Sequence record: MW735835.1
Strand: one strand, 5' to 3'
DNA from: Pseudomonas phage pPa_SNUABM_DT01
Length of the DNA stretch: 64,000 bases
A model generated the notes under the pieces. It did not search any database. It was not told where the DNA came from and was given only the letters and a program-made list of their open reading frames with translations. Both the position numbers and the translations under genes were made by a program. Positions 4,687-59,638 of the stretch are shown here, one piece after another. How positions within the stretch are numbered: the stretch's first letter is position 1; each line of letters begins with the position of its first letter.

Positions 4687-4723
4687 TACAGGGAGGAGCC
4701 TAGGCTCCTCCCTGTATGCCGTG
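4687..4723 (+). terminator. GC-rich hairpin (acagggaggagcctaggctcctccctgt) followed by a TATGCCGTGT box
   Basis: Perfect 12-bp stem with a cctagg loop directly after the stop at 4677. The 3' side carries the conserved TATGCCGTGT motif rather than a U-tract, so it may be a processing or terminator element. Confidence 0.5.
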
Positions 4724-5497: not shown

Positions 5498-5520
5498 AGA
5501 TACATTATCAACGTGTATAT
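5498..5520 (+). promoter_or_regulatory. promoter-like box gATACATTATCAACGTGtATAT (class B)
   Basis: Nearly identical to 40835-40857 upstream of the putative shell gene. Located about 95 nt upstream of the ATG at 5613. Confidence 0.5.
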
Positions 5521-5612
5521 TGGAAGCAGTGCGTAAATAAAAACGCAACGCGCTGAAGATGTGCGACAACACGTGTTGATCGATCATTTCTACATCCCTA
5601 GGAGTTACACCA

Positions 5613-6092
5613 ATGAGTGAAGTTCTGAACAAAGTCAGCCAGGCCATGAAAGACGTCGCCGCTCAATTCGAGAGCGCTGTTGGTTTCGACGACGATGGCG
5701 CAGCTGTACTGCCCGAGACCTGGGTCAAGGACAACCTGGCACTGGCCTCCGGTAGCGAAGAGCTGAGCCTCGAGACCGTCAACCTGGTGCAGAACACCGA
5801 AGCCACCTTCGCCGGCGGCATCGCCCTGGGTCTGGGTAACTCCGGCCTCAAGCGCATGCAGGAAAAAGCCGACCTGGAACGCGTCTCCGCCTCCGTCGAC
5901 TTCGGCAGCAACACCATCCGCGCCTCCGTCGATCGCCAGATCATGGTCCGTGCACCGGGCTCCACCGAAGAGAAGCCGAAGCACGGCAACGTCTCCGTCA
6001 AGCTCGATTCCGGCGCTGCCGCGAAGAAAGGCGACCTGAAGCGCGTCGTTACCCACGTGAACGAAGCCTTCACCGCCGCCTTCAGCAAATAA
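5613..6092 (+). CDS. hypothetical protein
   Basis: 159-aa ORF with SD aggagttacaccaATG. The antisense ORFs 5598..6113 and 5663..6088 are Gly/Ala/Arg-biased. Confidence 0.65.
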   Translation: MSEVLNKVSQAMKDVAAQFESAVGFDDDGAAVLPETWVKDNLALASGSEELSLETVNLVQNTEATFAGGIALGLGNSGLKRMQEKADLERVSASVDFGSNTIRASVDRQIMVRAPGSTEEKPKHGNVSVKLDSGAAAKKGDLKRVVTHVNEAFTAAFSK

Positions 6093-6110
6093 GCTGATCG
6101 CCCCGGCCCG

Positions 6111-6139
6111 CATCCAGCCGCTCTCGTAGCGGCTGGATG
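6111..6139 (+). terminator. hairpin catccagccgctctcgtagcggctggatg followed by tttatgcc
   Basis: Perfect 12-bp inverted repeat 19 nt after the stop at 6092, with a short T-stretch and a TATGCC-like flank. Confidence 0.5.
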
Positions 6140-9419: not shown

Positions 9420-9434
9420 TCCTGGACAGACGGC

Positions 9435-12419: not shown

Positions 12420-12583
12420 TGTAATGTCTCCCATGGGAAAAAATTCAACTTCGCGCGTGAAGTTACGAATGGTATGGCCCTTGCCTACATTTGAAAACGT
12501 AGGATTCGGTACTCGATGTGTTCGATACCACCACCACATACTATTTTGTTATTTTTTACTGGGTGCAACGGAAGAGGTAGAAG

Positions 12584-28359: not shown

Positions 28360-28374
28360 TCGAACTTTCCACAA

Positions 28375-28398
28375 TGATACATTATCTTTGTGCACATA
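28375..28398 (+). promoter_or_regulatory. promoter-like box tgATACATTATCtttGTGcacatac (class B)
   Basis: Located 30 nt upstream of the SD/ATG of the tubulin gene and shares ATACATTATC with 5500, 40837, 50001 and 54912. Confidence 0.5.
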
Positions 28399-28427: not shown

Positions 28428-29420
28428 ATGAATCAGAACAACGGCCTCTCTACCCGCCCCGTCGGCAAGATCCGCATCTACGGTTGCGGTGGTGGTGGCG
28501 TGAACATCGGTAAGGAATACCTGGATCAGGGTCACAGTGGCGACATCGCCAACATCGAGGCCTGCTTCATCGATACCTCCGACGCCAACCTGGAAGACCG
28601 CCTGATCGACAAGACCTGGCTGTTCGACGACCTCGATGGCTCCGGCGCCGTTCGCCAGACCAACGTGGCCGCCATCCAGAAAGCAATTCCCGACATCATC
28701 CGCAAGTTCCCGGCGGCCGACGTCAACATCGTGATCTTCACCCTGGCCGGCGGCACCGGCTCGGTCGCAGGTCCGCTGCTACTGCAACAACTGCTGGCCG
28801 ACGGCCACATGGCGGTCGCCATCGTCATCGGTGCCAAGCACTCCGGCCGTAACGCCGAGAACACTCTGGCCACCGTCAAGACCCTGGACGCCATCCGTCA
28901 CGTCACCGGCAAGCCGGTCGTCATGCACCTGGGCATCAACTCCACCAACGCGCCGACCGATGACGGCGTGGACCGTGAAGCTCATCTGATGATCACCTCG
29001 CTGGCCATGCTGTGCTCCCGCCGTAACCATCGCCTGGACACCGCCGACCTGCGTTCGCTGTTCGACTTCACCAAGTCCACCAGCGCCCCGGCTCAGATGT
29101 GCCGTCTGCACGTGACCGACAACACCGAAGCCTTCAACAAGGTGATGAAGACCGGCCCGCTGGCCGCTGCGTACCTGCTGCGCCAGTCCACCGACCCGGT
29201 ACCGGATCTGTTCGTGCCTTACAGCACCTACGGCACCATGCCGGCCATCGCCCAGGCCAGTGGCAGCCTGTTCTTCGGCATCGAGAGCGGTTCGATGGTT
29301 GAACTGCACAAGCTGGTCGCTGACCTGCAAAAAGAAGTCGAAACCCAGAAGCGGGCGGCTACCCAAGCCACCAACTTCGTCGATGCTCCGCCGGCCGGCG
29401 GCAGCGTCCTGGTCTTCTGA
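28428..29420 (+). CDS. phuZ: tubulin/FtsZ-like GTPase, PhuZ-type phage spindle protein
   Basis: T1 loop IYGCGGGGVNIG (GGGGxxxG) and the tubulin signature TLAGGTGSVAGP (GGTGSG). SD gaggaagcaacacATG. At 330 aa its size fits PhuZ. Confidence 0.8.
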   Translation: MNQNNGLSTRPVGKIRIYGCGGGGVNIGKEYLDQGHSGDIANIEACFIDTSDANLEDRLIDKTWLFDDLDGSGAVRQTNVAAIQKAIPDIIRKFPAADVNIVIFTLAGGTGSVAGPLLLQQLLADGHMAVAIVIGAKHSGRNAENTLATVKTLDAIRHVTGKPVVMHLGINSTNAPTDDGVDREAHLMITSLAMLCSRRNHRLDTADLRSLFDFTKSTSAPAQMCRLHVTDNTEAFNKVMKTGPLAAAYLLRQSTDPVPDLFVPYSTYGTMPAIAQASGSLFFGIESGSMVELHKLVADLQKEVETQKRAATQATNFVDAPPAGGSVLVF

Positions 29421-35884: not shown

Positions 35885-35931
35885 GGAGAGTAGCTCTATT
35901 ATGAGCTACTCTCCGATACTTTATTTTTTCT
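35885..35931 (+). terminator. intrinsic terminator (ggagagtagctctattatgagctactctcc plus ttattttttctttt)
   Basis: Perfect 12-bp stem followed by a T-run. The ATG at 35901 annotated in the ORF track sits inside the hairpin loop. Confidence 0.7.
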
Positions 35932-35954
35932 TTTGTTGGGACAAGGCACGAGCG

Positions 35955-38240
35955 ATGGAAAACCCATTTGTACTTCCAAAGGACGCCTACGTTCGCGATC
36001 TCGATCTGCTGAAAGGCTACTTCAACCAGAACACCCTCTTCCTGCACCGGATGACCGGTCAGCCAAAGGAAAAATGCCTGACCTTCCTCAAGAAGACCCT
36101 GTCTCGTGGCGGCGCATTCCCTCTGCGCGACCCGAACATGCTGGTCCTCAAGCAAGAGAGCCCGGGCAACCGCGTCAAAGACGAGATGACCCTGCTGTCG
36201 TACGTCAATACGGTCACCTCGACCAACCGTATCATGTCGCCGTCGATGGTTTGCTACGAAAACCCGAAGGTATTGAAGTCCCCTTCGGCCAAATTCGTGG
36301 AATCCGGCATCGCTGGGCGTAAGAAAGCCAAGAACGAGATGTTCGTGGCCAAAGTAAACGGTGATGAAGTCCTCGAAAAGATCAAGGACGCCGAGCAGAA
36401 CGCCAAAAAGATCGCGATCAACTCGCTGTCGGGCATGCACGGCTTCACCGGCAACATTCTCTACGTGAAATCGGGCCATTCCAGCCTGACTTCCATGTGC
36501 CGTTCGGCTACGGGCTACGGTAACGCCAACAACGAGAAGCTTTTGGCGGGCAGTCGACACTATCACTCGCCCAAGATAGCCATATCAAACATGCTGGCGC
36601 TGATTGATAGCCAACCGCACGACAAATTCCAGGCGGCGATGGATCATTGCGGCTTTGTGTACCCGACTGTTGAGCAAACCGCCGAGTGCATCAAGCGCAG
36701 CACCGACCTCTACTGGCGTAACGCTGGCAATTTCCAGAAGATCGTGGACTTCATTGTCCGTCTGACCCCGCTGGAACGCGCCATTGTCGTCTACACTGGC
36801 GATCTGTACCATATCGCCAAGTACAACGGTGACTATGTCCGTGGGTTCATGGACAAAATCATCAAGTACGACCCGAAAGCCGACCCGACAGTCGTGGACG
36901 ATGGCTACGCTGTACTTACCGGCAAGAAAATCGACGACGATACCAAGATGCTGGCAACCTACCTCAACGCGGAATACACCCGTGGCGAGAACTTCGACTC
37001 CTTGAAGGAGAAGGGCATGCACGATGTGCTTGCCATGGTAGCCAAAACCGCGTTCAACGTCCAGTCTGTAGTCCAGGAGTACTTCGTGTTCATCCGCACG
37101 ATGCTGACTCCGGTGCTGTTGGCGCCGACCGTGGCAAACATCAAGGGCATCCTGCGTCGTGTGGTGCTGGCTTCTGACACCGACTCGACCATCTTCACCA
37201 CGCAAGAGTGGGTGAGCTGGTACACTGGTAGCGACCATCGCACCAAAGAAGGTGACGGTATCTGGTACACCACGACCTACGTGGCTTGCCAGTGCATCGT
37301 GCACGTCCTGGCCCAATTGTCCGCCAACATGGGGGTGATCCAGGAAGACCTGCACCGCCTGACCATGAAGAACGAGTACGCCTTCCCGGTGTTCACCCTG
37401 ACCAACCGGGCCAAGCACTACTACGCCTTCATGAGCTGCCGTGAGGGCAACGTGTACAAGGACTACGACATGGAGATCAAGGGCGTGGCTCTGCGGTCTT
37501 CTACCGTACCTGTCGCAATCATCAAGCAGGCGAAAGCCATGATGAAGGAGGTCATGACCCGTGCCGACCAGAACCGTCAGTTCACGCTCGAAGAGCTGTA
37601 CCTGACTGTCTGGAAGCTGGAGCAGGACATCTACACCTCCATCAAGAAGGGTGAGCACCGTTACCTGAAGTCGGCACAGATTCAGGCCTTCTACAACAAC
37701 ATGAACAAAGACAACCCGTATCTGGAGAAGACGAACCTTCGTCACTATCACATCTGGGAAATGGTCTTTGCTCCGAAGTACGGTCACGTTGAAAACCCGC
37801 CCTACTCGGTCATTAAGGTTCCGCTGGCGATCAACAACAAGACCGACATGCAGAACTGGTTTGCCCACATGGAATCGGTCGATCCTGACTTCGCAGCGCG
37901 GATGAAGGACTACTGTGACAAGGCAGGCCGGACCGAGATTGGTACGCTGATGCTGCCTCTGTCGATCCTGGCAGGCGTGGGGATGCCCGATGAAGTGATG
38001 GCAGTGATCGACATCCGTCGACTCACCTACGAGATCCTGGAGTCGTTCTACATGATCCTGGAATCGTTGGGTGTGTTCCAGGTGGACAGCAAATACGTCC
38101 GCTTGATCAGTGACATCTATACACCGGAAGGCGAAGTCAACCTGCAACCGGAAGCAACCGATGCGAACAGCCTCATTGAAGAAGATGAGGACCTTCTGTA
38201 CGAGGAAGACGACGATGGAGAAGATTGGCTCGCCGACTGA
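35955..38240 (+). CDS. family-B DNA polymerase, palm/thumb fragment (motifs B and C only)
   Basis: Motif B KKIAINSLSGMHGF (KxxxNSxxG) and motif C VLASDTDSTIF (DTDS). No DxxSLYPS motif A and no exonuclease motifs, implying a split polymerase. Start moved to ATG 35955 (MENPFVLPK), downstream of the terminator hairpin. Confidence 0.65.
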   Translation: MENPFVLPKDAYVRDLDLLKGYFNQNTLFLHRMTGQPKEKCLTFLKKTLSRGGAFPLRDPNMLVLKQESPGNRVKDEMTLLSYVNTVTSTNRIMSPSMVCYENPKVLKSPSAKFVESGIAGRKKAKNEMFVAKVNGDEVLEKIKDAEQNAKKIAINSLSGMHGFTGNILYVKSGHSSLTSMCRSATGYGNANNEKLLAGSRHYHSPKIAISNMLALIDSQPHDKFQAAMDHCGFVYPTVEQTAECIKRSTDLYWRNAGNFQKIVDFIVRLTPLERAIVVYTGDLYHIAKYNGDYVRGFMDKIIKYDPKADPTVVDDGYAVLTGKKIDDDTKMLATYLNAEYTRGENFDSLKEKGMHDVLAMVAKTAFNVQSVVQEYFVFIRTMLTPVLLAPTVANIKGILRRVVLASDTDSTIFTTQEWVSWYTGSDHRTKEGDGIWYTTTYVACQCIVHVLAQLSANMGVIQEDLHRLTMKNEYAFPVFTLTNRAKHYYAFMSCREGNVYKDYDMEIKGVALRSSTVPVAIIKQAKAMMKEVMTRADQNRQFTLEELYLTVWKLEQDIYTSIKKGEHRYLKSAQIQAFYNNMNKDNPYLEKTNLRHYHIWEMVFAPKYGHVENPPYSVIKVPLAINNKTDMQNWFAHMESVDPDFAARMKDYCDKAGRTEIGTLMLPLSILAGVGMPDEVMAVIDIRRLTYEILESFYMILESLGVFQVDSKYVRLISDIYTPEGEVNLQPEATDANSLIEEDEDLLYEEDDDGEDWLAD

Positions 38241-39150: not shown

Positions 39151-40278
39151 TTATGCTGGCTCGACGTTGCGATACAAGAACGGACGGATGTTCTTGTCGA
39201 TGTACTGCTTCACCCAAGCGGCCACGTCCGACGGGATCTGATTGACCAGGTACTTGCCGCTGTCTGCTTCGAGCAGGGCACGGCGAATCCGGTTCTTGTC
39301 CGCGTCGTTCTTCTGGTTATTGTTCAGCTGGTCGAACTTGAGCAGCATCGCAATAGCCGGCATCCGAGCAATGGTGAGCGCCCAGATAGCTTGGTTGGTG
39401 AAGGCAATGTCCGGCAGACGTACCGTCTGAAGCAGGTTATCCTGCCCAAACACCGGTACGTTCGCCAGCATCGTCGTGTAGGTGTAGGTTTCCCGGGAGA
39501 ACCGCGCAGCGATCTCTTTAAGGCCTGCCTCCAGCTTGGGGTAGAGGTCAGCCGTATAGAAAGGCATGTCACTGGGTTCCCGTACGTAACCTTCCCCGCC
39601 GATCAAGCTGTGCAGGGTGTTGAGCACCGCCACGTCCAGATGACTGGTCAGCATGTTTGGGATGATCACTTGGCTGATGAAGTGCGCCGTTGGGAGTTGG
39701 AATCCGTCCGGTGCCATCGAAGCCGTGGCCATCCGCCACAGATGGTACTGACACGCCAACAACGGGATGTTAATCTCCAGCACAGCAGTAGCGCCTGCGC
39801 CCAAACCCTTGAAGGTGTGCTCACCATCCAGTTCCAGAATACCGCACCCGGATATAGGATGAGACAATACCCTCACGGGGCTCATATTCCGCCAGTTGAA
39901 CCAGATGTCGATCGGAGAAATGGAGTCATCGGCAATGGCAATGACGATCTCGTTCACGCCTTTGCCGTAGAAATGGCTGTGGTTACGGACTCGTCCGTGG
40001 TGCGCGCCGGTGCACAACCCCATCTGGCCAGAGATGCGATCGACGATGCTGGAGACACGCAGGTAGTAGTCTGGAAGGTTGCCATCGAAACTGATGTCGA
40101 CCATGGCGAGGATCTTGAGCAGCAAGTGGTCGCTCTTGATGTACCCTGGGTTCACCCGGCGGTACTCTTTATAGCGGTCCACCTGATTGGCCATCAACTC
40201 GCGCTTTACATAGTCCAGGCCCATGGTGGCGATGTTAGTCTGCCGTAGCCTGGCCTCAGTGTTGAAGAGTGTGTACAT
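39151..40278 (-). CDS. hypothetical protein (375 aa)
   Basis: Minus ORF with balanced composition. The + ORF 39109..40248 is V/R/H/D-rich antisense. Confidence 0.65.
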   Translation of the reverse strand: MYTLFNTEARLRQTNIATMGLDYVKRELMANQVDRYKEYRRVNPGYIKSDHLLLKILAMVDISFDGNLPDYYLRVSSIVDRISGQMGLCTGAHHGRVRNHSHFYGKGVNEIVIAIADDSISPIDIWFNWRNMSPVRVLSHPISGCGILELDGEHTFKGLGAGATAVLEINIPLLACQYHLWRMATASMAPDGFQLPTAHFISQVIIPNMLTSHLDVAVLNTLHSLIGGEGYVREPSDMPFYTADLYPKLEAGLKEIAARFSRETYTYTTMLANVPVFGQDNLLQTVRLPDIAFTNQAIWALTIARMPAIAMLLKFDQLNNNQKNDADKNRIRRALLEADSGKYLVNQIPSDVAAWVKQYIDKNIRPFLYRNVEPA

Positions 40279-40341
40279 GGCGGGGTGTCCAGTGACGGTT
40301 AAAGTCTCAAAGGATAGCCGACGTTATAGAAGGAAATCACA

Positions 40342-40629
40342 ATGAATGCTGAAGAGCAGCGTAAAGTCATCACGCCCCTGATCCAGTCGGCGTACAACCT
40401 TACCTTCAATCCTGCGCTGCGTGGTGGGACTGAGCGTCAGGATGGTAAACAGTTGGAAGAAGGCATTACGCTCTTCCCCAACGGGATTGACGTTACCCTC
40501 AACGGGGCAACCCAGGCTATTCGCTGGGAGCTGGATGACCACAAGGTCATCAACGTCACCTACGTTCCCTTGGCCTACTTCAACCTGGCCTGGGAAGCCT
40601 TGTCCAAATACCTGAAGCACACCGAGTGA
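40342..40629 (+). CDS. hypothetical protein (95 aa)
   Basis: SD gaaggaaatcacaATG. Confidence 0.55.
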   Translation: MNAEEQRKVITPLIQSAYNLTFNPALRGGTERQDGKQLEEGITLFPNGIDVTLNGATQAIRWELDDHKVINVTYVPLAYFNLAWEALSKYLKHTE

Positions 40630-40830
40630 GAACTGAATCGTAAAAAATAACTCGATAGTGCATATGGTATAGGAGATCTGCTCCGGCCAGGGTTTAGCCT
40701 TGGCGAATGGGAGGGTATTTCCTTTTCTCGGACAGGCAGGGCGGTAAAACCACCAAACCCCGCCCGTAAATTTAAACGCACCGCCTGCATCATGTTGAGG
40801 CTAGGAATGTAAATTCCATTCGAAAAACTC

Positions 40831-40857
40831 ACGGGGATACATTATCAACGTGAATAT
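40831..40857 (+). promoter_or_regulatory. promoter-like box acggggATACATTATCAACGTGaATATcgg (class B)
   Basis: 21 of 22 identity with 5500-5521. Located 68 nt upstream of the putative shell gene within a 295-bp leader region. Confidence 0.55.
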
Positions 40858-40924
40858 CGGAGCCAAGCTTCAAGATGTTCACTAGGCCCTAGTAACATTC
40901 TTTTCCATCCCAAGGAGTAACACC

Positions 40925-42832
40925 ATGGCTGTAAACAACGACGAAACCCTCGACACCGGCGCCGGCAGCGAGCAACCCCGTCGCAACGAACCGCGCGGCG
41001 AACCGCGTGGTGAGCGTCGTGAGACCAACATGAACGCCGGTCTGCTGGACATCAACCGCCTCCTGGGCGCCCCGATGAGCCGCCGTATCTCCGGCGAAGT
41101 TCTGGTCAATGCCGTCAAGGCCATCAAGCACTGGTTCGCTCCCGAGCGTCAAGTAGCCGGCGGCGGTCTGATCGATCTGACCAAGATCCAGGTTCTGGGT
41201 CTGGAAGCCTCCGAGCACAACGTCTCGATCTCCAGCGCCATCCTGGCCTACCCGGTCGAAGAAAACGGCACCGTCAAGGTGCTGGTGCACTCCATCGCTC
41301 TGGCTCAGAGCCTGACCGACGACGTCGGTGTGCGTACCGCCGAGATCAACCACCGCAGCTACACCCTGCCGGTGATCCCCTCGGACTACATCACCGAGAG
41401 CTACCTGGCTCTGATCGACGAAATCGTCAAGAAGAACTTCGAGCAGTCCCGCAAGAACGTCGAAATCGTTCGTGCCGGCTGGCGTGTGGTTTCGCCGAAG
41501 GTCGACTTCAGCGAGCCGGAAAACACCGAAGTGCGTCAGGTCGTGTTCTTCGCGCAGGCTGCGCTGGCCGCCATCTACGGCGACCTGTACAACGAGAACC
41601 TGTACTTCTCGCTCGACTGGCTGACCAAGGCCTCCACCCTGGAGATCAACGTCGACCTGTCCGGCCGCGAAGTGTTCACCGCTGACGGCCTGCCGCGTCG
41701 TTCCGACCTGGCCGTGCAAGTCGCCGGTATCGTCCGCAAGGGCGACCAGAACATCCCGGTTCCGCTGGCCAACCTGGGCGGCTACGTCAACATCATGTAC
41801 ACCCCGCCGGCGCAAGAAGAGCGTTGGGCCCGCAACCAGCGCCGTGATCAGCCGTACTTCACTCCGGTGTACGTGATCAACCGCATGGACACCGGCACCA
41901 ACGGCATCACCCCGGAACTGCTCCTGCTGGCCATGGCCGGCGCCTCGGTCATCTCCAAGGACCAGGCCTGGGCGCAGGGCTTCCTGCCGGGCGACGTGCA
42001 GCGCGGTGAAGTGGACTACCGTGACGCCGGTCTGCTGAACATCCTCGGCCCGGATCAGGACAAGCAGCCTGTCGTGTTCGACAGCCGCTCGAGCCTGGAC
42101 ACCAACAAGTGGGCCCAGTACTTCTTCAGCCTGGTGGACGACAACCTGGCCTGGGCAATCGAGCTGGAAGAAGGCGGCGACAACAGCTGGATCACCAGCC
42201 TGCTGTCCGACGCTGCAACCGACGACAGCCCGAACAAGGACGCCATCCGCCGTCTGTACGACTACGCGGACCGTCTGACCAACGGCAACTTCACCCGTCG
42301 TGCCAAGGAGCTGGGCGTCGAAGTCCCGCTGCAAATGTCCGGTGCCCGTTACCTGACCGGTACCTGGATCGACGAGAACGGCAAGGAGCGCGACCTGCGC
42401 GACTGGGACCTGCTGCGCTGGATGGCTTCCAACCCGAGCGACGAGGGCGAATCCGCTCTGCGCTACCAGGACGTCATCGACCGCACTGACCTGGACGTGG
42501 AAATCCGCGTTTCCGAGCAGTTCGACCAACTGACCCAAGCCCTCGGCGCGAGCAACGTCAAGTTCGCCCGCTACGTGGACCTGGCCTTCATCAACCCGGC
42601 CTTCATCGAGGCCCTCGCCATGGCCGTTGCTGATTGCAAGATCAACATCGACCAGCGCTCTGCGCACTACACCTTCGGCAACCGTCGCCTGCGTGGTAAC
42701 ACCCGCATCCGCGACTTCGTCGGTGGTGACCTGACCCACGGCATGCTCTCGAGCCGCCGCATGGGCAACGACGGTCAGCGTGGTCTGCGTTCCGTAGTCG
42801 GCAACGGCTTCGGTTTCGGCAACACCTACTGA
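40925..42832 (+). CDS. chmA: putative chimallin (ChmA), major phage-nucleus shell protein
   Basis: 635 aa (about 70 kDa) with low-complexity N- and C-terminal extensions. Lies immediately upstream of the RNAP beta-prime N-terminal gene, as in phiKZ gp54/gp55. Strong SD aaggagtaacaccATG and its own promoter box. No motif-level confirmation is possible from sequence alone. Confidence 0.5.
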   Translation: MAVNNDETLDTGAGSEQPRRNEPRGEPRGERRETNMNAGLLDINRLLGAPMSRRISGEVLVNAVKAIKHWFAPERQVAGGGLIDLTKIQVLGLEASEHNVSISSAILAYPVEENGTVKVLVHSIALAQSLTDDVGVRTAEINHRSYTLPVIPSDYITESYLALIDEIVKKNFEQSRKNVEIVRAGWRVVSPKVDFSEPENTEVRQVVFFAQAALAAIYGDLYNENLYFSLDWLTKASTLEINVDLSGREVFTADGLPRRSDLAVQVAGIVRKGDQNIPVPLANLGGYVNIMYTPPAQEERWARNQRRDQPYFTPVYVINRMDTGTNGITPELLLLAMAGASVISKDQAWAQGFLPGDVQRGEVDYRDAGLLNILGPDQDKQPVVFDSRSSLDTNKWAQYFFSLVDDNLAWAIELEEGGDNSWITSLLSDAATDDSPNKDAIRRLYDYADRLTNGNFTRRAKELGVEVPLQMSGARYLTGTWIDENGKERDLRDWDLLRWMASNPSDEGESALRYQDVIDRTDLDVEIRVSEQFDQLTQALGASNVKFARYVDLAFINPAFIEALAMAVADCKINIDQRSAHYTFGNRRLRGNTRIRDFVGGDLTHGMLSSRRMGNDGQRGLRSVVGNGFGFGNTY

Positions 42833-42863
42833 TCGGCGCTGAGCGTCAGCAGTAAAGTAGCAA

Positions 42864-42901
42864 GGGGGAGCTAACGCTCCCCCGAGCTATTCCTTTTTAT
42901 T
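42864..42901 (+). terminator. intrinsic terminator (gggggagctaacgctccccc ... cctttttatttt)
   Basis: GC stem followed by a T-run after the stop at 42832. Confidence 0.6.
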
Positions 42902-42924
42902 TTCACCGGAGCACGGAAAGGCCA

Positions 42925-44388
42925 ATGAAAGAACGCAATGGCGTTTACTTGCGTGTGGTGAGTTACGACACCATGTTCATGCATCAGAGTCACCCTGCGA
43001 CCCTGATGAACGACTTCAACATCGATCTTGAGGCTGATCGTCTCAAGCTGAACAACCTCATTTATGCCTCTCTGGATGGCGACTCGCTGAACAACACGGC
43101 GAGCTGTGACTGTGGGCACATCACCGGCATGGACAACTATGGCATCCGCTGCCACGAGTGTCTGAGCCTGGTCATGCCCATCACCGAGAAACCACTGGAG
43201 ACTCTCCTGTGGATCAAGGTGCCGGCTGGCATCAACAAATTCATCAACCTGACGGTGTGGCGGATTCTGTCGAAGAACCTGACGCACTCGAACTTCAACA
43301 TCCTGGAGTACTTGTGTAACCCGCGTTACAACGCACCGAGTCCGTTAGCCGCGGACAAGATGCGCAAGTTGGAGCGCCTGGAAATCCCGCGTGGCTACAA
43401 CCACTTCGTTGACAACTACGAGGCCATCCTGGTCGCGTTGTTCAAAGCGGGGCTCATCGGTCCATCCGCTTCTGCCCGTAAGCGCCGCAAGATCATGCGC
43501 TTCTTGCAGGAGAACTTTGACCGGACGTTCTCGGAGTACCTGCCGTTCCCAACTCGGCTGGGCTTCATCAAGGAGAGCAGCAACAACCGTATCACGGCCG
43601 ACCCGAAGATGGTGGCTGCGGTCAACGCCGCGCACATCCTCATCGGTATCGACAACCGCGAGACGGTCGAGAACCAACCCAAGCTGTCCCAGGCCCAGAA
43701 AGAAGGACGCGTGGTCAACGCGCTCCAGAACTTCAACGATTACTACAAGACCTTCGAGTCCGAGGTGATCTTCAAGAAGCCTGGTATCGCTCGTAAGCTG
43801 ATTTACGGCACCCGGCCGTACTTCGGGTTCCGTGCGGTGATCACCTCCCGTCAGAAGCCTCACCGGCAAGATGGCATGGAGATGCCGTGGTCGGCAAGTA
43901 CACTGCTCTTTAAGGTGCACTTGCAGAACAAGCTGATCACCCAGGGCTACATCCCTAACGAGATGCAGGCCCTGATCTACGAGAACACGCTGCGCTGGCA
44001 CCCAGAGCTGGATCGGCTGTTCAAGGAGTTGCTGGCAGAAGCTCCCAACGGGACTATTCCCACCACCTTCGGTCGTAACCCGACCCTGACGCGTGGTTCG
44101 ATCGGCTACAACCAGATCGACACCATTAAGAGTGACCCAACGGACAACACCATCTCGATCAGCCCGCTGAACTTGATCGACAAGAACGCGGACTTCGACG
44201 GTGACGCGCTCTGGGGCGAGCTGCCGCTTGACCACAAGAACGCGAAGATCATGTCCCGCCTGGACCCGGTCACTGGCGTCATGGACCTCGACAAACCGTT
44301 TACCATCTCGCGAAATACGACGCTGCCGGCGCCGTTGATTGCGACGATGACGAATTGGCTCATCGAGGGCGATAAGGTATCCACATGA
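42925..44388 (+). CDS. multisubunit RNA polymerase beta-prime subunit, N-terminal fragment
   Basis: Catalytic motif NADFDGDALWG (NADFDGD). N-terminal Zn-finger-like CDCGH...CHEC. SD ggaaaggccaATG. The antisense ORF 43345..44235 was rejected. Confidence 0.8.
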   Translation: MKERNGVYLRVVSYDTMFMHQSHPATLMNDFNIDLEADRLKLNNLIYASLDGDSLNNTASCDCGHITGMDNYGIRCHECLSLVMPITEKPLETLLWIKVPAGINKFINLTVWRILSKNLTHSNFNILEYLCNPRYNAPSPLAADKMRKLERLEIPRGYNHFVDNYEAILVALFKAGLIGPSASARKRRKIMRFLQENFDRTFSEYLPFPTRLGFIKESSNNRITADPKMVAAVNAAHILIGIDNRETVENQPKLSQAQKEGRVVNALQNFNDYYKTFESEVIFKKPGIARKLIYGTRPYFGFRAVITSRQKPHRQDGMEMPWSASTLLFKVHLQNKLITQGYIPNEMQALIYENTLRWHPELDRLFKELLAEAPNGTIPTTFGRNPTLTRGSIGYNQIDTIKSDPTDNTISISPLNLIDKNADFDGDALWGELPLDHKNAKIMSRLDPVTGVMDLDKPFTISRNTTLPAPLIATMTNWLIEGDKVST

Positions 44389-54900: not shown

Positions 54901-54926
54901 TCTTCAGAAATACATTATCTAGTTGG
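54901..54926 (+). promoter_or_regulatory. promoter-like box ttcttcagaaATACATTATCtagttgg (class B)
   Basis: Shares ttcttcagaa plus the AT box with 62491-62512. Located 38 nt upstream of the ATG at 54964. Confidence 0.5.
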
Positions 54927-54963
54927 CAAGCCAATGCTCACCTGTAGTGTAAGGGAGTCACCG

Positions 54964-57189
54964 ATGACAAGTAACCAGTCTGTCCAGGAGCAACTGGCTC
55001 AGTACTATGCTCAGTCCGCCCGTAATCCGGTGGAACTGCATCCTGAGTTGATGTCGCTCTATGGGCTCAACCCGTTTATCCGGCACATCTCCGCATCCCG
55101 TGCGGCTATGTTCACCGGCAACCTGGCACAAATGGTGGTAATCAAGGAGCCCACCAGGAAGCACATCATGACCCTGATGGAGCGTCCGTTTGCCGATACG
55201 ACGTTCTCGATTGAATTCGAGGACAACGTGCAGATCCTTAAAATCATCCCGCGCTTCGGCCACACCGCCGGTGCCAACCGTATCCGGCATTCGCCGCAGA
55301 CGGCCATCATTTACGAGAACCAGCGCACCAACGAGATCGGGGTGACGATGCTGACGGACTACCACGTCACGCACCAGCACTTCGGCACCGAGTTCAAGCG
55401 CAATCGTGACGTGATGGACCTGATGCGCGAGAAGGCGTACTTCAAGGCTGGTACCAAGCTGGCCCACAGTCCGCTGATTGACCAGTATGGCAACTACATG
55501 TACGGCCGCGAGACGAACGTGCTCATGGCGTCTGACGTGGCAGGGACTGAGGACGGTGTGAAGGCCCGTCGGGGATACCTGGAGAAGTTGGCCCCCACAG
55601 GATTTGAGACTCGTGTCTTCGAATTCGGGCGTGAGTTCTTCCCGACCAACCAATCCACAGTCCCCGGCATCTATAAGGTCATGCCTGACCTGGGCGAGAA
55701 GGTAAGCAGCACTGGCTTGCTGGTAGCGCTGCGCCGGTATGACCCGATCAGTGGCGTGGCCAACATGACCACCGAGGCGCTGCAACAGCCGGACTACATC
55801 TTCGACCGGAAGCGGTTCGTCCAACACATCGATGCTGAAGTGGTGGACATCAAGGTCGAACGCAACACCTCGATCAACATCCCGCCGTTGCCGGTGGGCA
55901 TGGAAGATCAGCTGCTCAAGTACTACAACGCCGACACCGAGTTCTACAAGAAGATCGTGGACTTCTGGTGGGAAAAGCGTAAAGAAGCGCGCAAGCGTGG
56001 GTACGAAGAGCTGCCGATGGAGCCGGAGTTCAACCATCTGGTGTTCGAAGCCATCGGCCGGGTTGGTCCTGACCATCTGCGGTCGGACCATGGGTTCAAC
56101 CGGAAGGTCGATGAAGCCGTCTCGGGCGGTAAAGTCGACAAGGTCTACCGCGGCGTGAAGCTGGACGCATGGCGCGTGGAGATCACCTTCAAGTACCTGT
56201 CCATCCCGAACAAGGGCTATAAGATCACCGACATCAACGGCAACAAGTCCGTCGTGGTCGAGGTGGTCGATGACGAAGACATGCCGGTCGACGAGAACGG
56301 AATCGTCGCTGACATCGTCGTAGACCCGAACTCCCGTTGGAACCGGGTAACACCAGCATCCCCGATCGAAATGGTGATCTCGGGTGCCGGGCGTGACCTG
56401 GGCAAGCGCCTCCAGCATGCCTTCGGGTTCCCCATGAACGATCAGTTGAAGGAGGATGAAGTAAACGACGTCGTCTATTCTCCCGAGAACCGTGATCTCG
56501 TGGAGTATTGGTTCGACGAGCTGATGGAGTTCTACAAGGTAGTCGCTCCGTACCAGTACGACGACCTCTCGGACCCCGAGTACCACCGCTTCAACCCGGA
56601 GTACAAGCACACGCAAGTGGCCGCAGTCATGCTGGATCACCTGCTGGGCATCGACCTCACCATGCCGACCGATAACCCGGTCCACATGCCGGATGTCATC
56701 CGCGCCATTCAGGAGCGCTGGCCTCCGTTCATCACCCCTGTCCGCTTCCGCGGCCGGGACGGCAAGATGAAGGTGTCCCGTGAGCCGATGCTGATTGCTC
56801 CGTCCTACTACATCAACCTGGAGAAGACCGCAGAAGACTCGTGGATGGCTGCATCGTCCGCGAAGTGCAACGTGTTCGGTACCACTGCGCGTCTGTCCAA
56901 CAACGACAAGTACGACTCTCCCGGTCGTCAGTCGTCCATTCGTGTCGGTGAGTCCGAGATTCGCTCGGAGTCCGCTGTCTGTGGTGGTGAAGCCACTGCC
57001 GATCAGAAGGACGCCTCCAACAACCCGATTGCGCACAAGTTCGTGCTCCGTCGGCTGTTGACCCACCCGACCCCGACCAACATCGAGGAGGTTCTCGATC
57101 GGAAGGTGGTTCCGGTAGGCGGGCATAGACCGTTGGCCTACATGCGCAACATGTTCGAATGCTCGGGCAAACAACTCACCAACGAATAA
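54964..57189 (+). CDS. multisubunit RNA polymerase beta subunit, C-terminal half
   Basis: DINGNKSVVVEVVDDEDMPVDENGIVADIVVDPNSRWNRV aligns with bacterial beta [38 protein letters not shown]. Downstream RVGESEIRSE parallels the conserved RFGEMEVWALE region. SD aagggagtcaccgATG. The 1482-aa antisense ORF 54958..59406 was rejected. Confidence 0.7.
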   Translation: MTSNQSVQEQLAQYYAQSARNPVELHPELMSLYGLNPFIRHISASRAAMFTGNLAQMVVIKEPTRKHIMTLMERPFADTTFSIEFEDNVQILKIIPRFGHTAGANRIRHSPQTAIIYENQRTNEIGVTMLTDYHVTHQHFGTEFKRNRDVMDLMREKAYFKAGTKLAHSPLIDQYGNYMYGRETNVLMASDVAGTEDGVKARRGYLEKLAPTGFETRVFEFGREFFPTNQSTVPGIYKVMPDLGEKVSSTGLLVALRRYDPISGVANMTTEALQQPDYIFDRKRFVQHIDAEVVDIKVERNTSINIPPLPVGMEDQLLKYYNADTEFYKKIVDFWWEKRKEARKRGYEELPMEPEFNHLVFEAIGRVGPDHLRSDHGFNRKVDEAVSGGKVDKVYRGVKLDAWRVEITFKYLSIPNKGYKITDINGNKSVVVEVVDDEDMPVDENGIVADIVVDPNSRWNRVTPASPIEMVISGAGRDLGKRLQHAFGFPMNDQLKEDEVNDVVYSPENRDLVEYWFDELMEFYKVVAPYQYDDLSDPEYHRFNPEYKHTQVAAVMLDHLLGIDLTMPTDNPVHMPDVIRAIQERWPPFITPVRFRGRDGKMKVSREPMLIAPSYYINLEKTAEDSWMAASSAKCNVFGTTARLSNNDKYDSPGRQSSIRVGESEIRSESAVCGGEATADQKDASNNPIAHKFVLRRLLTHPTPTNIEEVLDRKVVPVGGHRPLAYMRNMFECSGKQLTNE

Positions 57190-57201
57190 GCGGAGTAAGC
57201 A

Positions 57202-59304
57202 ATGCGTCGAATCAAAGCACGTGAGTTCATGAACCGCGACGTAATCGCGGAGTGGCCGCTGCCCGATGAGAAGTTGATTATCGAGTTCGACGACGGGGTT
57301 CTTGAGACCACCACTCGCCGTACCACGACGAGCTGGTTTTGCTGGGAGCTGCACCGGCAGTTCCCCCGCACCCCGCTGAACATCAACCACCACATCGGCA
57401 ATGGGTTCCCCAGCGCTGACATGATCCCCAAGACGCTGTCCAACATCGTCCGGGATCTGCACTACACGTACTTCACGCCAGGCAGCGAACTGGCAAACCA
57501 CGATCTGTGCTACGACCGGGAGGATGTGTGGCGCGTGGTGAAGGACGTCGGTAACGAGATCTACAACGTCCTGTCGGTCAATCTGGAAGAGTGGCATGTC
57601 CACATCAACGCCTTCCACCTGCTCGAGCTGTACGACTACCCGCCGTTGGTGGCGATTCGTGCGACGCTCAAGGATAACCAGCTCTCCATCTCCAACGCGA
57701 TGGACCGGACCTCTGAAGTCCTGATGAAGGACCCAGCGATCCTGCACAACCCCATCGTACGGGGGCTGCGTTCCAAGCAGATCAAGATGGGTCAGTTCTT
57801 GCAGATCATCCTCTGCTTGGGCTACCGGACCGACCTGGACCAGGTAATCTTCCGCAAGGCCATCACGGTCGGCTTCTTCGAGGGCCTGACCAAGATGCAC
57901 GACATCATGATCGAGTCGTGCTCGGCCAAGAAAGCGCTCATGTTCACCAAGAAGCCGCTGCGGATCGTCGAGTACTTCAACCGGAAGATGCAGCTGTCCA
58001 CCACCGTGGTCGACAAGCTCATCTGGAACGACTGTGGTTCGGACGTGTACGCCGAGATCCCGGTCGACACCCACCTCTGGTCCCACCTCGACGGCAAGTT
58101 CTACCTCGATGAGTCCACCCGCAAGTTGACTGCTATCCATGCGGACAACAAAGAGCAGCAGAAAGCGCTCAAGGGTAAGACCATCAAGATGCGCTCGGCC
58201 ATGTTCTGCCGTTACCGTGGTCGTGGTGAAGTTTGCCACGTCTGCTTCGGCGAGCTGGCTTGGTCCATCCCGCGGGAAACCAGCCTGGGTCACGTCTGTG
58301 CTACCGAACTCTGCCGGGAAGGTTCCCAGCGGACGCTGTCTGTGAAACACTTGGACGGCTCGTCGGTAGTGGAGGAAATCGTCATTGCGGAGGAACACCT
58401 GCCGTACATTGACGTCTGTGCCTCGGACCCAGCAGTGAACGACAACGGGGATGTGGAGGTGATGTCTGCCGCCACCGAAGAACTCCTGGGTGAAGCTGTC
58501 CCGGAAACCGCCCGTGAATCCTCGCTGCTGAAGTTCAACCCACGGCTGAAGAAGATGAAGCCGGTCATGATCCTGCCTGCCGCCCCGGACAAGAACACCG
58601 AGAACGCAGCGGGCCTGGCCGCCATCAACAGCGACACCGTCATCGAGCGCTTGAACATCCACCGGTTCACTTCGTTCCGCGAAGTTCAGATCCGTGTGAC
58701 CAACCTGCGCGAAGAAACCACCGATGCGTTCATCCCGGTCAGCCAGGGTGCACGGTTGGGTTCGCTGTCCCGCGTCATGCTGCACTACATCAAGGACCAC
58801 GGCTACACCGTTGACGAAGATGGCAACTATTGCATCGACCTCAGCGAGTGGGACTTCGGTGCTCCGGCGTTCTCCCTGCCGCGCCGCCATGCCAGTACGC
58901 TGGACTTCATGGCTGCGGTAGAGGCATTCATCCGCTCCCCGGCGAAGAAGTCGGAACGCAACGGCTTCAACGGCCGCATGCTGACCAGCTACGACGACCC
59001 GGTAGCAGCATTGCTGGACTTCAGTGATCTGGTGAACTCGCAACTGCGGGTATCCATCAGCCACCTCGAAGTGATCCTGCTGTCGCTGTCCCGTCCGGCG
59101 GATGACCCTGACGACTACCGTCTGCCGGACTTTGACCGGCCGATGAAGTTCGAAGAGCACCGGACCCTGATGCAGTATCGTTCGGCTGGCCAGCAACTGG
59201 CCTACGAGCGGCAGCCTGACATGATCGAAGATCCGGACAGCTACCTGATCACCAAGCGTCCGGCGGGTCTCCTGGACCCGTTCGTGTTCCCGGAAGTTAT
59301 CTGA
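57202..59304 (+). CDS. putative RNA polymerase beta-prime subunit, C-terminal fragment
   Basis: Immediately follows the beta fragment. Cys cluster CRYRGRGEVCHVCFGE...HVCATELC resembles the beta-prime second Zn site. Segment GQFLQIILCLGYRTDLDQV weakly resembles the bridge-helix region (..GYLTRRLVDV). No NADFDGD, as expected for a C-terminal piece. Confidence 0.4.
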   Translation: MRRIKAREFMNRDVIAEWPLPDEKLIIEFDDGVLETTTRRTTTSWFCWELHRQFPRTPLNINHHIGNGFPSADMIPKTLSNIVRDLHYTYFTPGSELANHDLCYDREDVWRVVKDVGNEIYNVLSVNLEEWHVHINAFHLLELYDYPPLVAIRATLKDNQLSISNAMDRTSEVLMKDPAILHNPIVRGLRSKQIKMGQFLQIILCLGYRTDLDQVIFRKAITVGFFEGLTKMHDIMIESCSAKKALMFTKKPLRIVEYFNRKMQLSTTVVDKLIWNDCGSDVYAEIPVDTHLWSHLDGKFYLDESTRKLTAIHADNKEQQKALKGKTIKMRSAMFCRYRGRGEVCHVCFGELAWSIPRETSLGHVCATELCREGSQRTLSVKHLDGSSVVEEIVIAEEHLPYIDVCASDPAVNDNGDVEVMSAATEELLGEAVPETARESSLLKFNPRLKKMKPVMILPAAPDKNTENAAGLAAINSDTVIERLNIHRFTSFREVQIRVTNLREETTDAFIPVSQGARLGSLSRVMLHYIKDHGYTVDEDGNYCIDLSEWDFGAPAFSLPRRHASTLDFMAAVEAFIRSPAKKSERNGFNGRMLTSYDDPVAALLDFSDLVNSQLRVSISHLEVILLSLSRPADDPDDYRLPDFDRPMKFEEHRTLMQYRSAGQQLAYERQPDMIEDPDSYLITKRPAGLLDPFVFPEVI

Positions 59305-59310
59305 CCATTC

Positions 59311-59340
59311 GAGGGGCCTTCGGGCCCCTCTTTTATTTTG
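59311..59340 (+). terminator. intrinsic terminator (gaggggccttcgggcccctc plus ttttattttg)
   Basis: Perfect GC stem with a uucg loop and a T-run, 6 nt after the stop. Confidence 0.75.
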
Positions 59341-59353
59341 CATGGAGGGCCTC

Positions 59354-59638
59354 ATGGGCCAACTGCGTATCAAAGAAGCTACCCTGTCCATGGAAGTCGG
59401 CGCCAAAGGCCACTTCTGCGTGGACAGTCTGTTCAGCGACCGTGAGATCGACGTGATCGATCAACTGTCCGTCCGGCTGGATGAGAAAGAAATCCAGGCC
59501 GACAACCCCAAGTTCGACATCACGATCAAGGACAACCACATCCACTACGTCCTGAAGGAAGGCCAGAATTCCTGGAACGACACCATCTCCTTCACTGCGT
59601 ATTTCGATCAGCCGGTGAATTGGCACCCGCATCGCTGA
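59354..59638 (+). CDS. hypothetical small protein (94 aa)
   Basis: SD ggagggcctcATG. Confidence 0.5.
   Translation: MGQLRIKEATLSMEVGAKGHFCVDSLFSDREIDVIDQLSVRLDEKEIQADNPKFDITIKDNHIHYVLKEGQNSWNDTISFTAYFDQPVNWHPHR

Follow-up and report, generated by a model that had tools for sequence, protein, structure and literature searches.

We analysed a 64,000-nt stretch (the window; 56.8% GC) of the 265,520-bp genome of Pseudomonas phage pPa_SNUABM_DT01 (DT01; record MW735835.1), with the plus-strand open reading frame (ORF) at 40925..42832 as the main subject. A first-pass annotation made from the letters alone had proposed this ORF, of 635 amino acids (aa) and about 70 kDa, as a candidate gene for chimallin (ChmA), the shell protein of the phage nucleus. 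The product is indeed 635 aa long (70.7 kDa, pI 5.0), begins with MAVNNDETLDTGAGSEQPRRNEPRGEPRGERRE and ends with GNGFGFGNTY. It is a 100% match in the protein collection to QTH80347.1 of DT01, 'hypothetical protein PA10_00147'. A ribosome-binding site (AAGGAG, 40912-40917), which is kept in the relatives, is located 7 nt 5' of the ATG, and the intergenic gap between the preceding ORF (40342..40629) and the start codon is exactly 295 bp (40630-40924), the leader length given at first pass. Direct reading of the sequence downstream revealed a terminator-like plus-strand hairpin, GGGGGAGC-TAAC-GCTCCCCC, with a T-rich tract (42864..42903), between this ORF and the following RNA polymerase (RNAP) gene. 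A simple terminator scan did not pick up the hairpin because the T-run begins 6 nt past the stem. The hairpin and T-tract probably mark the end of the transcription unit.

The ORF at 40925..42832 encodes a divergent chimallin

The Pfam family PF25677 (Chimallin_Phikzvirus) matched the product with 115.9 bits (cutoff 27; E = 1.9e-33), the alignment spanning residues 88-599 and profile positions 82-598 of 627, and phrog_4795 ('nuclear shell protein') matched residues 30-632 (2e-63). The sole matches of a phmmer search against PDB sequences were phiPA3 PhuN (8fne, 7.8e-23) and the 201phi2-1 chimallin (7sqq and 8igg, 4.2e-18). An AlphaFold2 model made from 36 homologues (mean predicted local distance difference test [pLDDT] 74.4; predicted template modelling score 0.75) has a confident core of about residues 54-585, with pLDDT below 50 at both ends (residues 1-53 and 586-635). 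By homology, the core comprises two domains, one alpha/beta at the N-terminal side (residues 55-226) and one GNAT-like at the C-terminal side (residues 227-578). The comparison of this model with the PDB by Foldseek, one of the checks suggested at first pass, returned only chimallin or PhuN structures at ranks 1-9 (201phi2-1, Goslar, and phiPA3; E from 1.4e-30 to 1.6e-26). The target-normalised template modelling (TM) scores were 0.78-0.84 (including 7sqs, 7sqv, and 8fne), and at ranks 2 and 4-8, which are entries of single protomers or tetramers, the root-mean-square deviation was 4.1-4.9 Å. Rank 10 had an E value of 0.036, and the weak matches include GNATs. Similarity to chimallin is thus detectable by family profile, by sequence, and by structure, and the proposed identity of the 635-aa ORF holds.

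The characterised chimallins, 201phi2-1 gp105, phiKZ gp54, phiPA3 PhuN gp53, and Goslar gp189, share with the DT01 protein the Pfam/PHROG family and the two-domain fold (TM about 0.8), and the length is similar (635 aa versus 626-631 aa for phiKZ gp54 and 201phi2-1 gp105). Among deposited phages, the chimallins that match best, from Xoo-sp14, LucasX, and RTH11, reach only 24-25% identity; the Xoo-sp14 chimallin is among the closest, having the top identity and coverage but not the best E value. At least 44 metagenomic relatives of the DT01 clade, many of them from compost and soil, encode chimallins with 45-91% identity. A search of the window with a clade profile found no second chimallin copy. 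A megablast search with the region gave no match in the phage collection, the copy of which apparently lacks the DT01 record. We conclude with high confidence that the ORF at 40925..42832 is chmA of DT01, a singleton-genus member of the Chimalliviridae. DT01 ChmA is a bona fide but divergent orthologue.

Tail segments of DT01 ChmA

It has been shown for the 201phi2-1 chimallin that the N-tail (residues 1-47) is dispensable for assembly, and that an N-terminal segment (NTS, residues 48-61) and two C-terminal segments (CTS1, residues 590-611, and CTS2, residues 622-631) dock on adjacent protomers and are required for assembly (PMC9365700). We mapped these segments onto DT01 ChmA by alignment with the 201phi2-1, phiKZ, and Xoo-sp14 chimallins. 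The counterpart of the 201phi2-1 N-tail is residues 1-40 (40925..41044), a low-complexity, variable stretch that includes EPRGEPRGERRE and has a pLDDT below 50. Residues 41-54 (LDINRLLGAPMSRR; 41045..41086) align with the NTS and would be the lacing peptide within tetramers. The C-terminal tail (42683..42829), with pLDDT below 50 from residue 586, comprises the CTS1 equivalent (residues 587-616, mapping to 590-611), a linker, and the CTS2 equivalent VVGNGFGFGNTY (residues 624-635, mapping to 622-631), which ends with a conserved aromatic residue. Every chimallin in this alignment has an aromatic last residue, and the four segments follow each other in the identical order in DT01 and the known chimallins. 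DT01 differs from them in an insertion of about 8 residues in CTS1 (IRDFVGGD), in a Gly/Phe-rich CTS2 (GNGFGFGNTY), and in an N-tail that is rich in Arg, Glu, and Pro rather than in Gln.

The N-tail varies among the 36 clade members, in contrast to the tail segments, which are kept. In the NTS, R53 never varies and D42, N44, R45, L46, L47, and G48 hardly do, while R588, R590, G591, and N592 of CTS1 and N627, G628, and G630 of CTS2 are invariant or nearly so. The first-pass annotation had taken the low-complexity extensions at both ends for lacing tails, which was right for one end only. The C-terminal GNGFGFGNTY motif lies within CTS2 and is, judged from its sequence, probably a genuine lacing segment; the N-terminal EPRGEPRG stretch, however, belongs to the N-tail, which is dispensable in 201phi2-1, and the lattice-lacing NTS corresponds to LDINRLLGAPMSRR at residues 41-54.

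Gene order around chmA

The gene directly following chmA (42925..44388, plus strand; 487 aa, QTH80348.1) encodes the N-terminal part of the non-virion RNAP beta-prime subunit and is the orthologue of phiKZ gp55 (phrog_2987, 2e-133; PHIKZ055 in PDB entry 7ogp_A, 1.3e-72). Its NADFDGD motif, from which a beta-prime gene had been recognised at first pass, is located at residues 421-427 (44185-44205). On the other side of the chmA leader is a 95-aa accessory ORF (40342..40629, plus strand; phrog_34139, 1e-35), preceded by a homologue of phiKZ gp52 (39151..40278, minus strand; phrog_3938, 5e-67; BLASTP to PHIKZ052, 2e-26) that is divergently oriented to chmA. The 95-aa ORF is not present at the corresponding spot in the relatives L001-L005 and thus represents an insertion specific to the lineage, at the position taken by gp53 in phiKZ. 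Further upstream is a divergent family-B DNA polymerase gene, the equivalent of phiKZ gp50 (35901..38240, plus strand; PF20286, 4e-218), whose product is at best 38% identical to those of deposited phages.

The order of Chimalliviridae core genes was compared over one block, consisting of the DNA polymerase, gp52-like, chmA, and gp55-like genes; Prichard et al. (2023) treat the core genome in full. The order in phiKZ is gp50 (polymerase), gp52 (minus strand), gp53, gp54, and gp55, with a 311-bp gap before gp54. DT01 has the block in the same order as phiKZ, 201phi2-1, Xoo-sp14, and five metagenomic relatives, and chmA occupies the known slot between the gp52-like and gp55-like genes; the gp54-gp55 arrangement that the first-pass annotation had recognised is part of a longer gp50-gp52-gp54-gp55 order reproduced in DT01. 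Xanthomonas phage Xoo-sp14 has the DNA polymerase gene, a minus-strand gene, chmA, and the RNAP beta-prime gene in this order as well, with a locus GC content (57.5%) similar to that of DT01. It infects another host genus and has a 232-kb genome, and its chimallin and DNA polymerase are 25% and 38% identical, respectively, to those of DT01. Compost-derived DT01 relatives (L001, L018, L019, L021, and L023) encode ChmA at the orthologous position. Many PHROGs common to phiKZ-like phages were found in the window.

The gp55-like gene is uninterrupted in DT01 and split in some relatives. One of them (L002, 8009-10182) has pieces of 429 and 64 aa that lie about 690 bp apart, tblastn gave two pieces for LucasX and two for KpGz_1, and in phiKZ (L006, 7952-10790) gp55 is followed by the HNH endonuclease gene gp56 and by gp56.1. 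This pattern would fit a mobile intron or endonuclease confined to some lineages.

The tubulin gene phuZ (plus strand; phrog_4733, about 6e-73) is located 12.5 kb upstream of chmA, in agreement with the distance of 12 kb noted at first pass. Within the Chimalliviridae PhuZ is accessory, occurring in about two-thirds of the members (PMC10299810). At its longest, the ORF begins at 28374, but a copy of the promoter-like box ATACATTATC described below (28377-28386) overlaps its first codons, and a ribosome-binding site (GAGGAA) precedes the ATG at 28428; the start at 28428 (28428..29420, 330 aa) is therefore more likely, and PhuZ is likely driven by the same box as chmA. The RNAP beta gene (54934..57189, plus strand; phrog_3295, 1.5e-176) also has a ATACATTATC box on its 5' side, at 54910. 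The genome as a whole carries seven RNAP subunit genes according to the 2021 description of DT01.

Two minus-strand ORFs in the window were rejected as genes. The longest ORF at the RNAP beta locus, 54958..59391 (1477 aa), is an antisense artefact, the real gene according to PHROG being the plus-strand one given above. Similarly, ORF 5598..6113 is unsupported, and the plus-strand ORF 5613..6092 is supported by PHROG. The heptamer CGGCATA occurs 10 times, on the minus strand at 4721, 7706, 25294, 29464, 33374, 59733, and 61335 and on the plus strand at 9431, 20124, and 54500. Most copies are directly followed by a GC-rich hairpin and a T-run, and 6 of the 10 are intergenic by the gene calls made here. 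The set resembles a family of intrinsic terminators peculiar to this phage, in which the base of the stem is conserved.

Promoter-like boxes in the chmA leader

To describe the leader we aligned 15 distinct leaders, the relatives having chimallins 47-91% identical to that of DT01. Over aligned positions, the nucleotide identity is 77-86% for the leader versus 74-86% for the chmA coding sequence; the leader is conserved as much as, or more than, the coding sequence. Two promoter-like regions stand out in the alignment, both on the plus strand.

The proximal region (40812..40855), an AT-rich box consisting of AATTCCATTC, 13-15 nt, and ATACATTATCAACGTGAAT, is kept in 15/15 leaders, where its conserved form is AATTCCATTC, about 13-15 nt, and (A)TACATTATCAACGTGAAT. 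It contains ATACATTATC (40837-40846), which occurs four times in the window without a mismatch. Allowing up to one mismatch, there are 7 matches in the window versus 1.1 expected, a number reached by 0/100 shuffles. The five plus-strand copies are located 15-113 nt 5' of plus-strand genes supported by family matches, namely those for phrog_9746, PhuZ, ChmA, phrog_3209, and RNAP beta. The first-pass annotation had called the copy at chmA the strongest of the AT-rich promoter boxes. The box is present in the leader, with an exact core match and an extended 45-nt pattern in common with the copy at 5500, but its rank as the strongest has no objective measure. The ATACATTATC box fits the review description of early promoters, and by analogy it would be an early promoter, read by the virion RNAP. 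A sigma-70 scan found no promoter, which is expected because the phage uses its own polymerases.

The distal region (40640..40675), consisting of GTAAAAAATAAC, 11 nt, and TATGGTATAGGAG, is invariant in the 15 leaders; its parts are GTAAAAAATAAC at 40640-40651 and TAT(G/T)GTATAGGAG at 40663-40675. A second exact copy of GTAAAAAATAAC is present on the minus strand at 12548-12559, upstream of the tail-sheath gene and followed by ...ATAGTATGTGG. All five matches to GTAAAAAATAAC in the window with up to two mismatches are intergenic. The copies at chmA and at the tail-sheath gene suggest a shared middle/late promoter element. By analogy with the middle-promoter motif of phiKZ, the distal block would be a middle/late-type promoter with its start site, used by the non-virion RNAP, and the leader would carry early and middle/late promoters in tandem.

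The published transcription map of phiKZ offers a parallel. phiKZ gp54 has a primary transcription start site with an early motif and a secondary one with a middle motif (Wicke et al., 2020; PMC8244752), the middle motif consisting of an A-repeat plus TACT about 22 nt 5' of the start (PMC8244752). Both phages have a long non-coding leader at this gene (295 bp in DT01, 311 bp in phiKZ) with a distal A-rich motif, a TAT(G/A)-type element, a hairpin, and, nearer the gene, an AT-rich box about 10 nt long. The motifs themselves differ (ATACATTATC in DT01 versus TTTATATTAC in phiKZ, and AAAAAATAAC in DT01 versus the A-repeat plus TACT in phiKZ), and the start sites are mapped in phiKZ whereas those of DT01 are inferred.

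Conserved RNA structure in the chmA leader

A consensus fold by RNAalifold gave three hairpins at 40672..40727 on the plus strand: H1 (40672-40684), in which GGAG pairs with CUCC; H2 (40686-40704), which covaries; and H3 (40709-40727), in which GGGAGGG pairs with CCUUUUC. The folded strand is the plus strand, because the G-U pairs in H2 and H3 are valid only on this strand. In H2, compensatory changes were found at 6/6 scored pairs and 88.9% of the alignment cells are paired, versus 39-53% in slid controls, and 0/500 shuffles reached its covariation score; the true 7-bp stem of DT01 is under-counted here, since the DT01 row is off by one column in the H2 alignment. The full DT01 leader RNA has a fold z score of -3.0. 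A search of 40200-41000 against Rfam gave no match, and a blastn search of the phage collection with the leader gave one chance match only.

In the 15 leaders, H3 is followed by the conserved block GTAAATTTAAAC, which precedes the proximal box. An extra hairpin (GGGCGG-N15-CCGCCC, 40739-40765) is located between H3 and GTAAATTTAAAC in DT01 and its 91%-identical relative (L018) only. The palindrome GTTCACTAGGCCCTAGTAA (40877..40895, plus strand) is located 3' of the proximal box and 5' of the ribosome-binding site; it is unique in the window, and its conserved form, GTTCACTAGG(C)CCTAGTAA, is nearly invariant in the 15 leaders. The phiKZ leader has a palindrome, CTAAGTACTTAG, at the same relative position before the ribosome-binding site. 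The DT01 palindrome could be an operator or a hairpin in the 5' untranslated region (5'-UTR).

Part of this organisation extends beyond the clade. The core GTAAAAAAT[A/T]AC, 10-11 nt, TAT[T/G]GTATAGG, and a hairpin is found both in the DT01 clade and in Xoo-sp14, whose chimallin is just 25% identical. In Xoo-sp14 and in a related contig (L024), chmA is preceded by GTAAAAAATTAC, 10 nt, CCTATTGTATAGG, a hairpin (UUCG), and GTAATTTGATTTAAAC; the proximal leader of Xoo-sp14 is not alignable with that of DT01. Looser counterparts 5' of chmA were seen by eye in LucasX, Noxifer, pEa_SNUABM_54, phiKZ, and 201phi2-1, only some of which were recovered by a relaxed pattern scan.

Discussion

The ORF that we assign to chmA is preceded by a leader that is itself under strong conservation. 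This leader may be more than a spacer, namely a deeply conserved regulatory module made up of the distal promoter, a transcript start with three stem-loops (one of them covarying), and an invariant 5'-UTR palindrome, a reading to which we give somewhat less than even odds. The stem-loops at the 5' end probably stabilise the long chmA transcript.

An alternative that we consider unlikely, although less so than the others, is that the distal leader (40640-40780) is an independent gene for a small structured RNA or a binding platform at the DNA level. Such a function would be in line with the very strong conservation and the single covarying hairpin, with the failure of Rfam to recognise the region, with the U-rich arm that ends H3 and is followed by the conserved GTAAATTTAAAC, and with the persistence of the core blocks in Xoo-sp14, where chimallin identity is down to 25%. 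However, no canonical terminator separates the distal region from the proximal promoter, and the block is located directly 5' of chmA on the same strand in 15/15 clade leaders and in two Xoo-sp14-type contigs. In addition, phiKZ gp54 has two mapped starts with matching motif classes. It is far less probable that the conserved blocks serve the divergent minus-strand gp52-like gene instead of chmA. In its favour, the region is a divergent spacer between that gene and chmA in L001-L005. In DT01, however, insertion of the 95-aa plus-strand ORF has parted the blocks from the gp52-like gene, and they stayed with chmA. The G-U pairs of H2 and H3 are likewise valid only on the plus strand, and the gp52-like gene has a separate conserved element next to it, AAGTCTCAAAGGATAG (about 40300-40316).

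From what is known of chimallins and from the elements of the leader, a working scheme for the chmA unit can be proposed. By homology, the two-domain core of ChmA would tile into a square lattice held together by flexible peptides docking on neighbouring subunits, the NTS (residues 41-54) within tetramers and CTS1 (587-616) and CTS2 (624-635) between tetramers. The resulting shell would enclose the replicating phage DNA and exclude host nucleases, and PhuZ would position or rotate it. chmA is most likely a monocistronic unit. The injected virion RNAP would read the proximal early-type promoter (40812-40855), the distal A-rich block (40640-40675) would yield a transcript beginning with the three stem-loops, and transcription would stop at the terminator-like hairpin (42864-42903). 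The analysis itself demonstrates the family and fold of the protein, the alignment of its tail segments and their conservation, the gene order, the conserved leader, and the covariation of a single hairpin; from these we infer shell formation, the transcription starts, and the match of polymerases to promoters.

Several points weigh against this picture. Identity to all experimentally studied chimallins is just 16-25%, the tail segments carry low model confidence and their docking role is assigned by analogy, and the promoter roles are deduced from motif recurrence and analogy, with a spacing from GTAAAAAATAAC to TATG of 11 nt at chmA versus 7 nt at the tail-sheath copy. Our search of the literature found no experiment showing a nucleus in DT01, and the 2021 description of the phage, although it mentions RNAP subunits, says nothing of a shell, of PhuZ, or of a nucleus. 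The low identity (about 16-25%) and the lack of an observed nucleus, together with the annotation of the neighbouring gp52 homologue as 'structural head protein' in phiKZ, might also be taken to mean that the chimallin fold has been recruited elsewhere, as a virion or scaffold protein, and builds no nuclear shell in the DT01 lineage. We consider this highly improbable, slightly more so even than a leader serving the gp52-like gene. The protein is the sole chimallin homologue in the window and is encoded at the orthologous position; its NTS, CTS1, and CTS2 show the conservation and predicted disorder that assembly calls for; phuZ, split RNAP genes, and further core genes co-occur with it; and the Goslar chimallin, equally divergent from that of 201phi2-1, nevertheless forms the same lattice. 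Finally, the 616-aa antisense ORF at 40889..42739 (minus strand) has practically no chance of being the real gene in place of the plus-strand ORF, since every match to a family, a structure, or a homologue is that of the plus-strand product and long antisense ORFs recur in this GC-rich window, such as 54958..59391 (minus strand) over the plus-strand RNAP beta gene. This ORF, too, was rejected as a GC-rich artefact without family support.

The identification of a chimallin in DT01 is correct but has been known since 2023. Prichard et al. (2023) included DT01 among the chimallin-encoding phages in their Table S1 and, in Table S2, gave it a genus of its own inside the subfamily cluster of chimalliviruses; this prior record, as far as these two tables go, is at the level of the phage and not a listing by gene. 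The main result of our work is only a correction of annotation, QTH80347.1 being on record to this day as a 'hypothetical protein'. Judged by the literature that could be searched, the comparative description of the chmA leader would be the sole addition to published knowledge. The first-pass annotation had described DT01 as a nucleus-forming jumbo phage with an unusually GC-rich background. DT01 is a member of the Chimalliviridae, and its GC content (57%) is indeed above that of phiKZ and 201phi2-1 (37-45%), but it is not exceptional: the Xoo-sp14 locus has 57.5% and Noxifer 53.5%, and the published range for chimalliviruses is 27-59%. We therefore rejected an exceptional GC content as a feature of DT01.

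The conserved leader provides concrete, testable elements for an early and then sustained expression of chmA. If it is a regulatory module, its role could lie in the stability of the chmA mRNA, in translational control, or in the timing of a switch between virion and non-virion RNAPs, and it would act on the most abundant non-virion protein of the phage. The finding may also matter for the satellites of this clade. The DT01-like jumbo phage JPTI55 (275,808 bp) is reported to be the helper that transduces a large satellite genomic island in Pseudomonas fluorescens SBW25 (bioRxiv 10.1101/2024.08.29.610337), and the preprint does not contain the words chimallin, nucleus, or PhuZ (bioRxiv 10.1101/2024.08.29.610337). 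If JPTI55 encodes ChmA too, the satellite would have to cope with a phage nucleus, and whether relatives of this clade build a ChmA shell bears directly on the route by which satellite DNA reaches the capsid.

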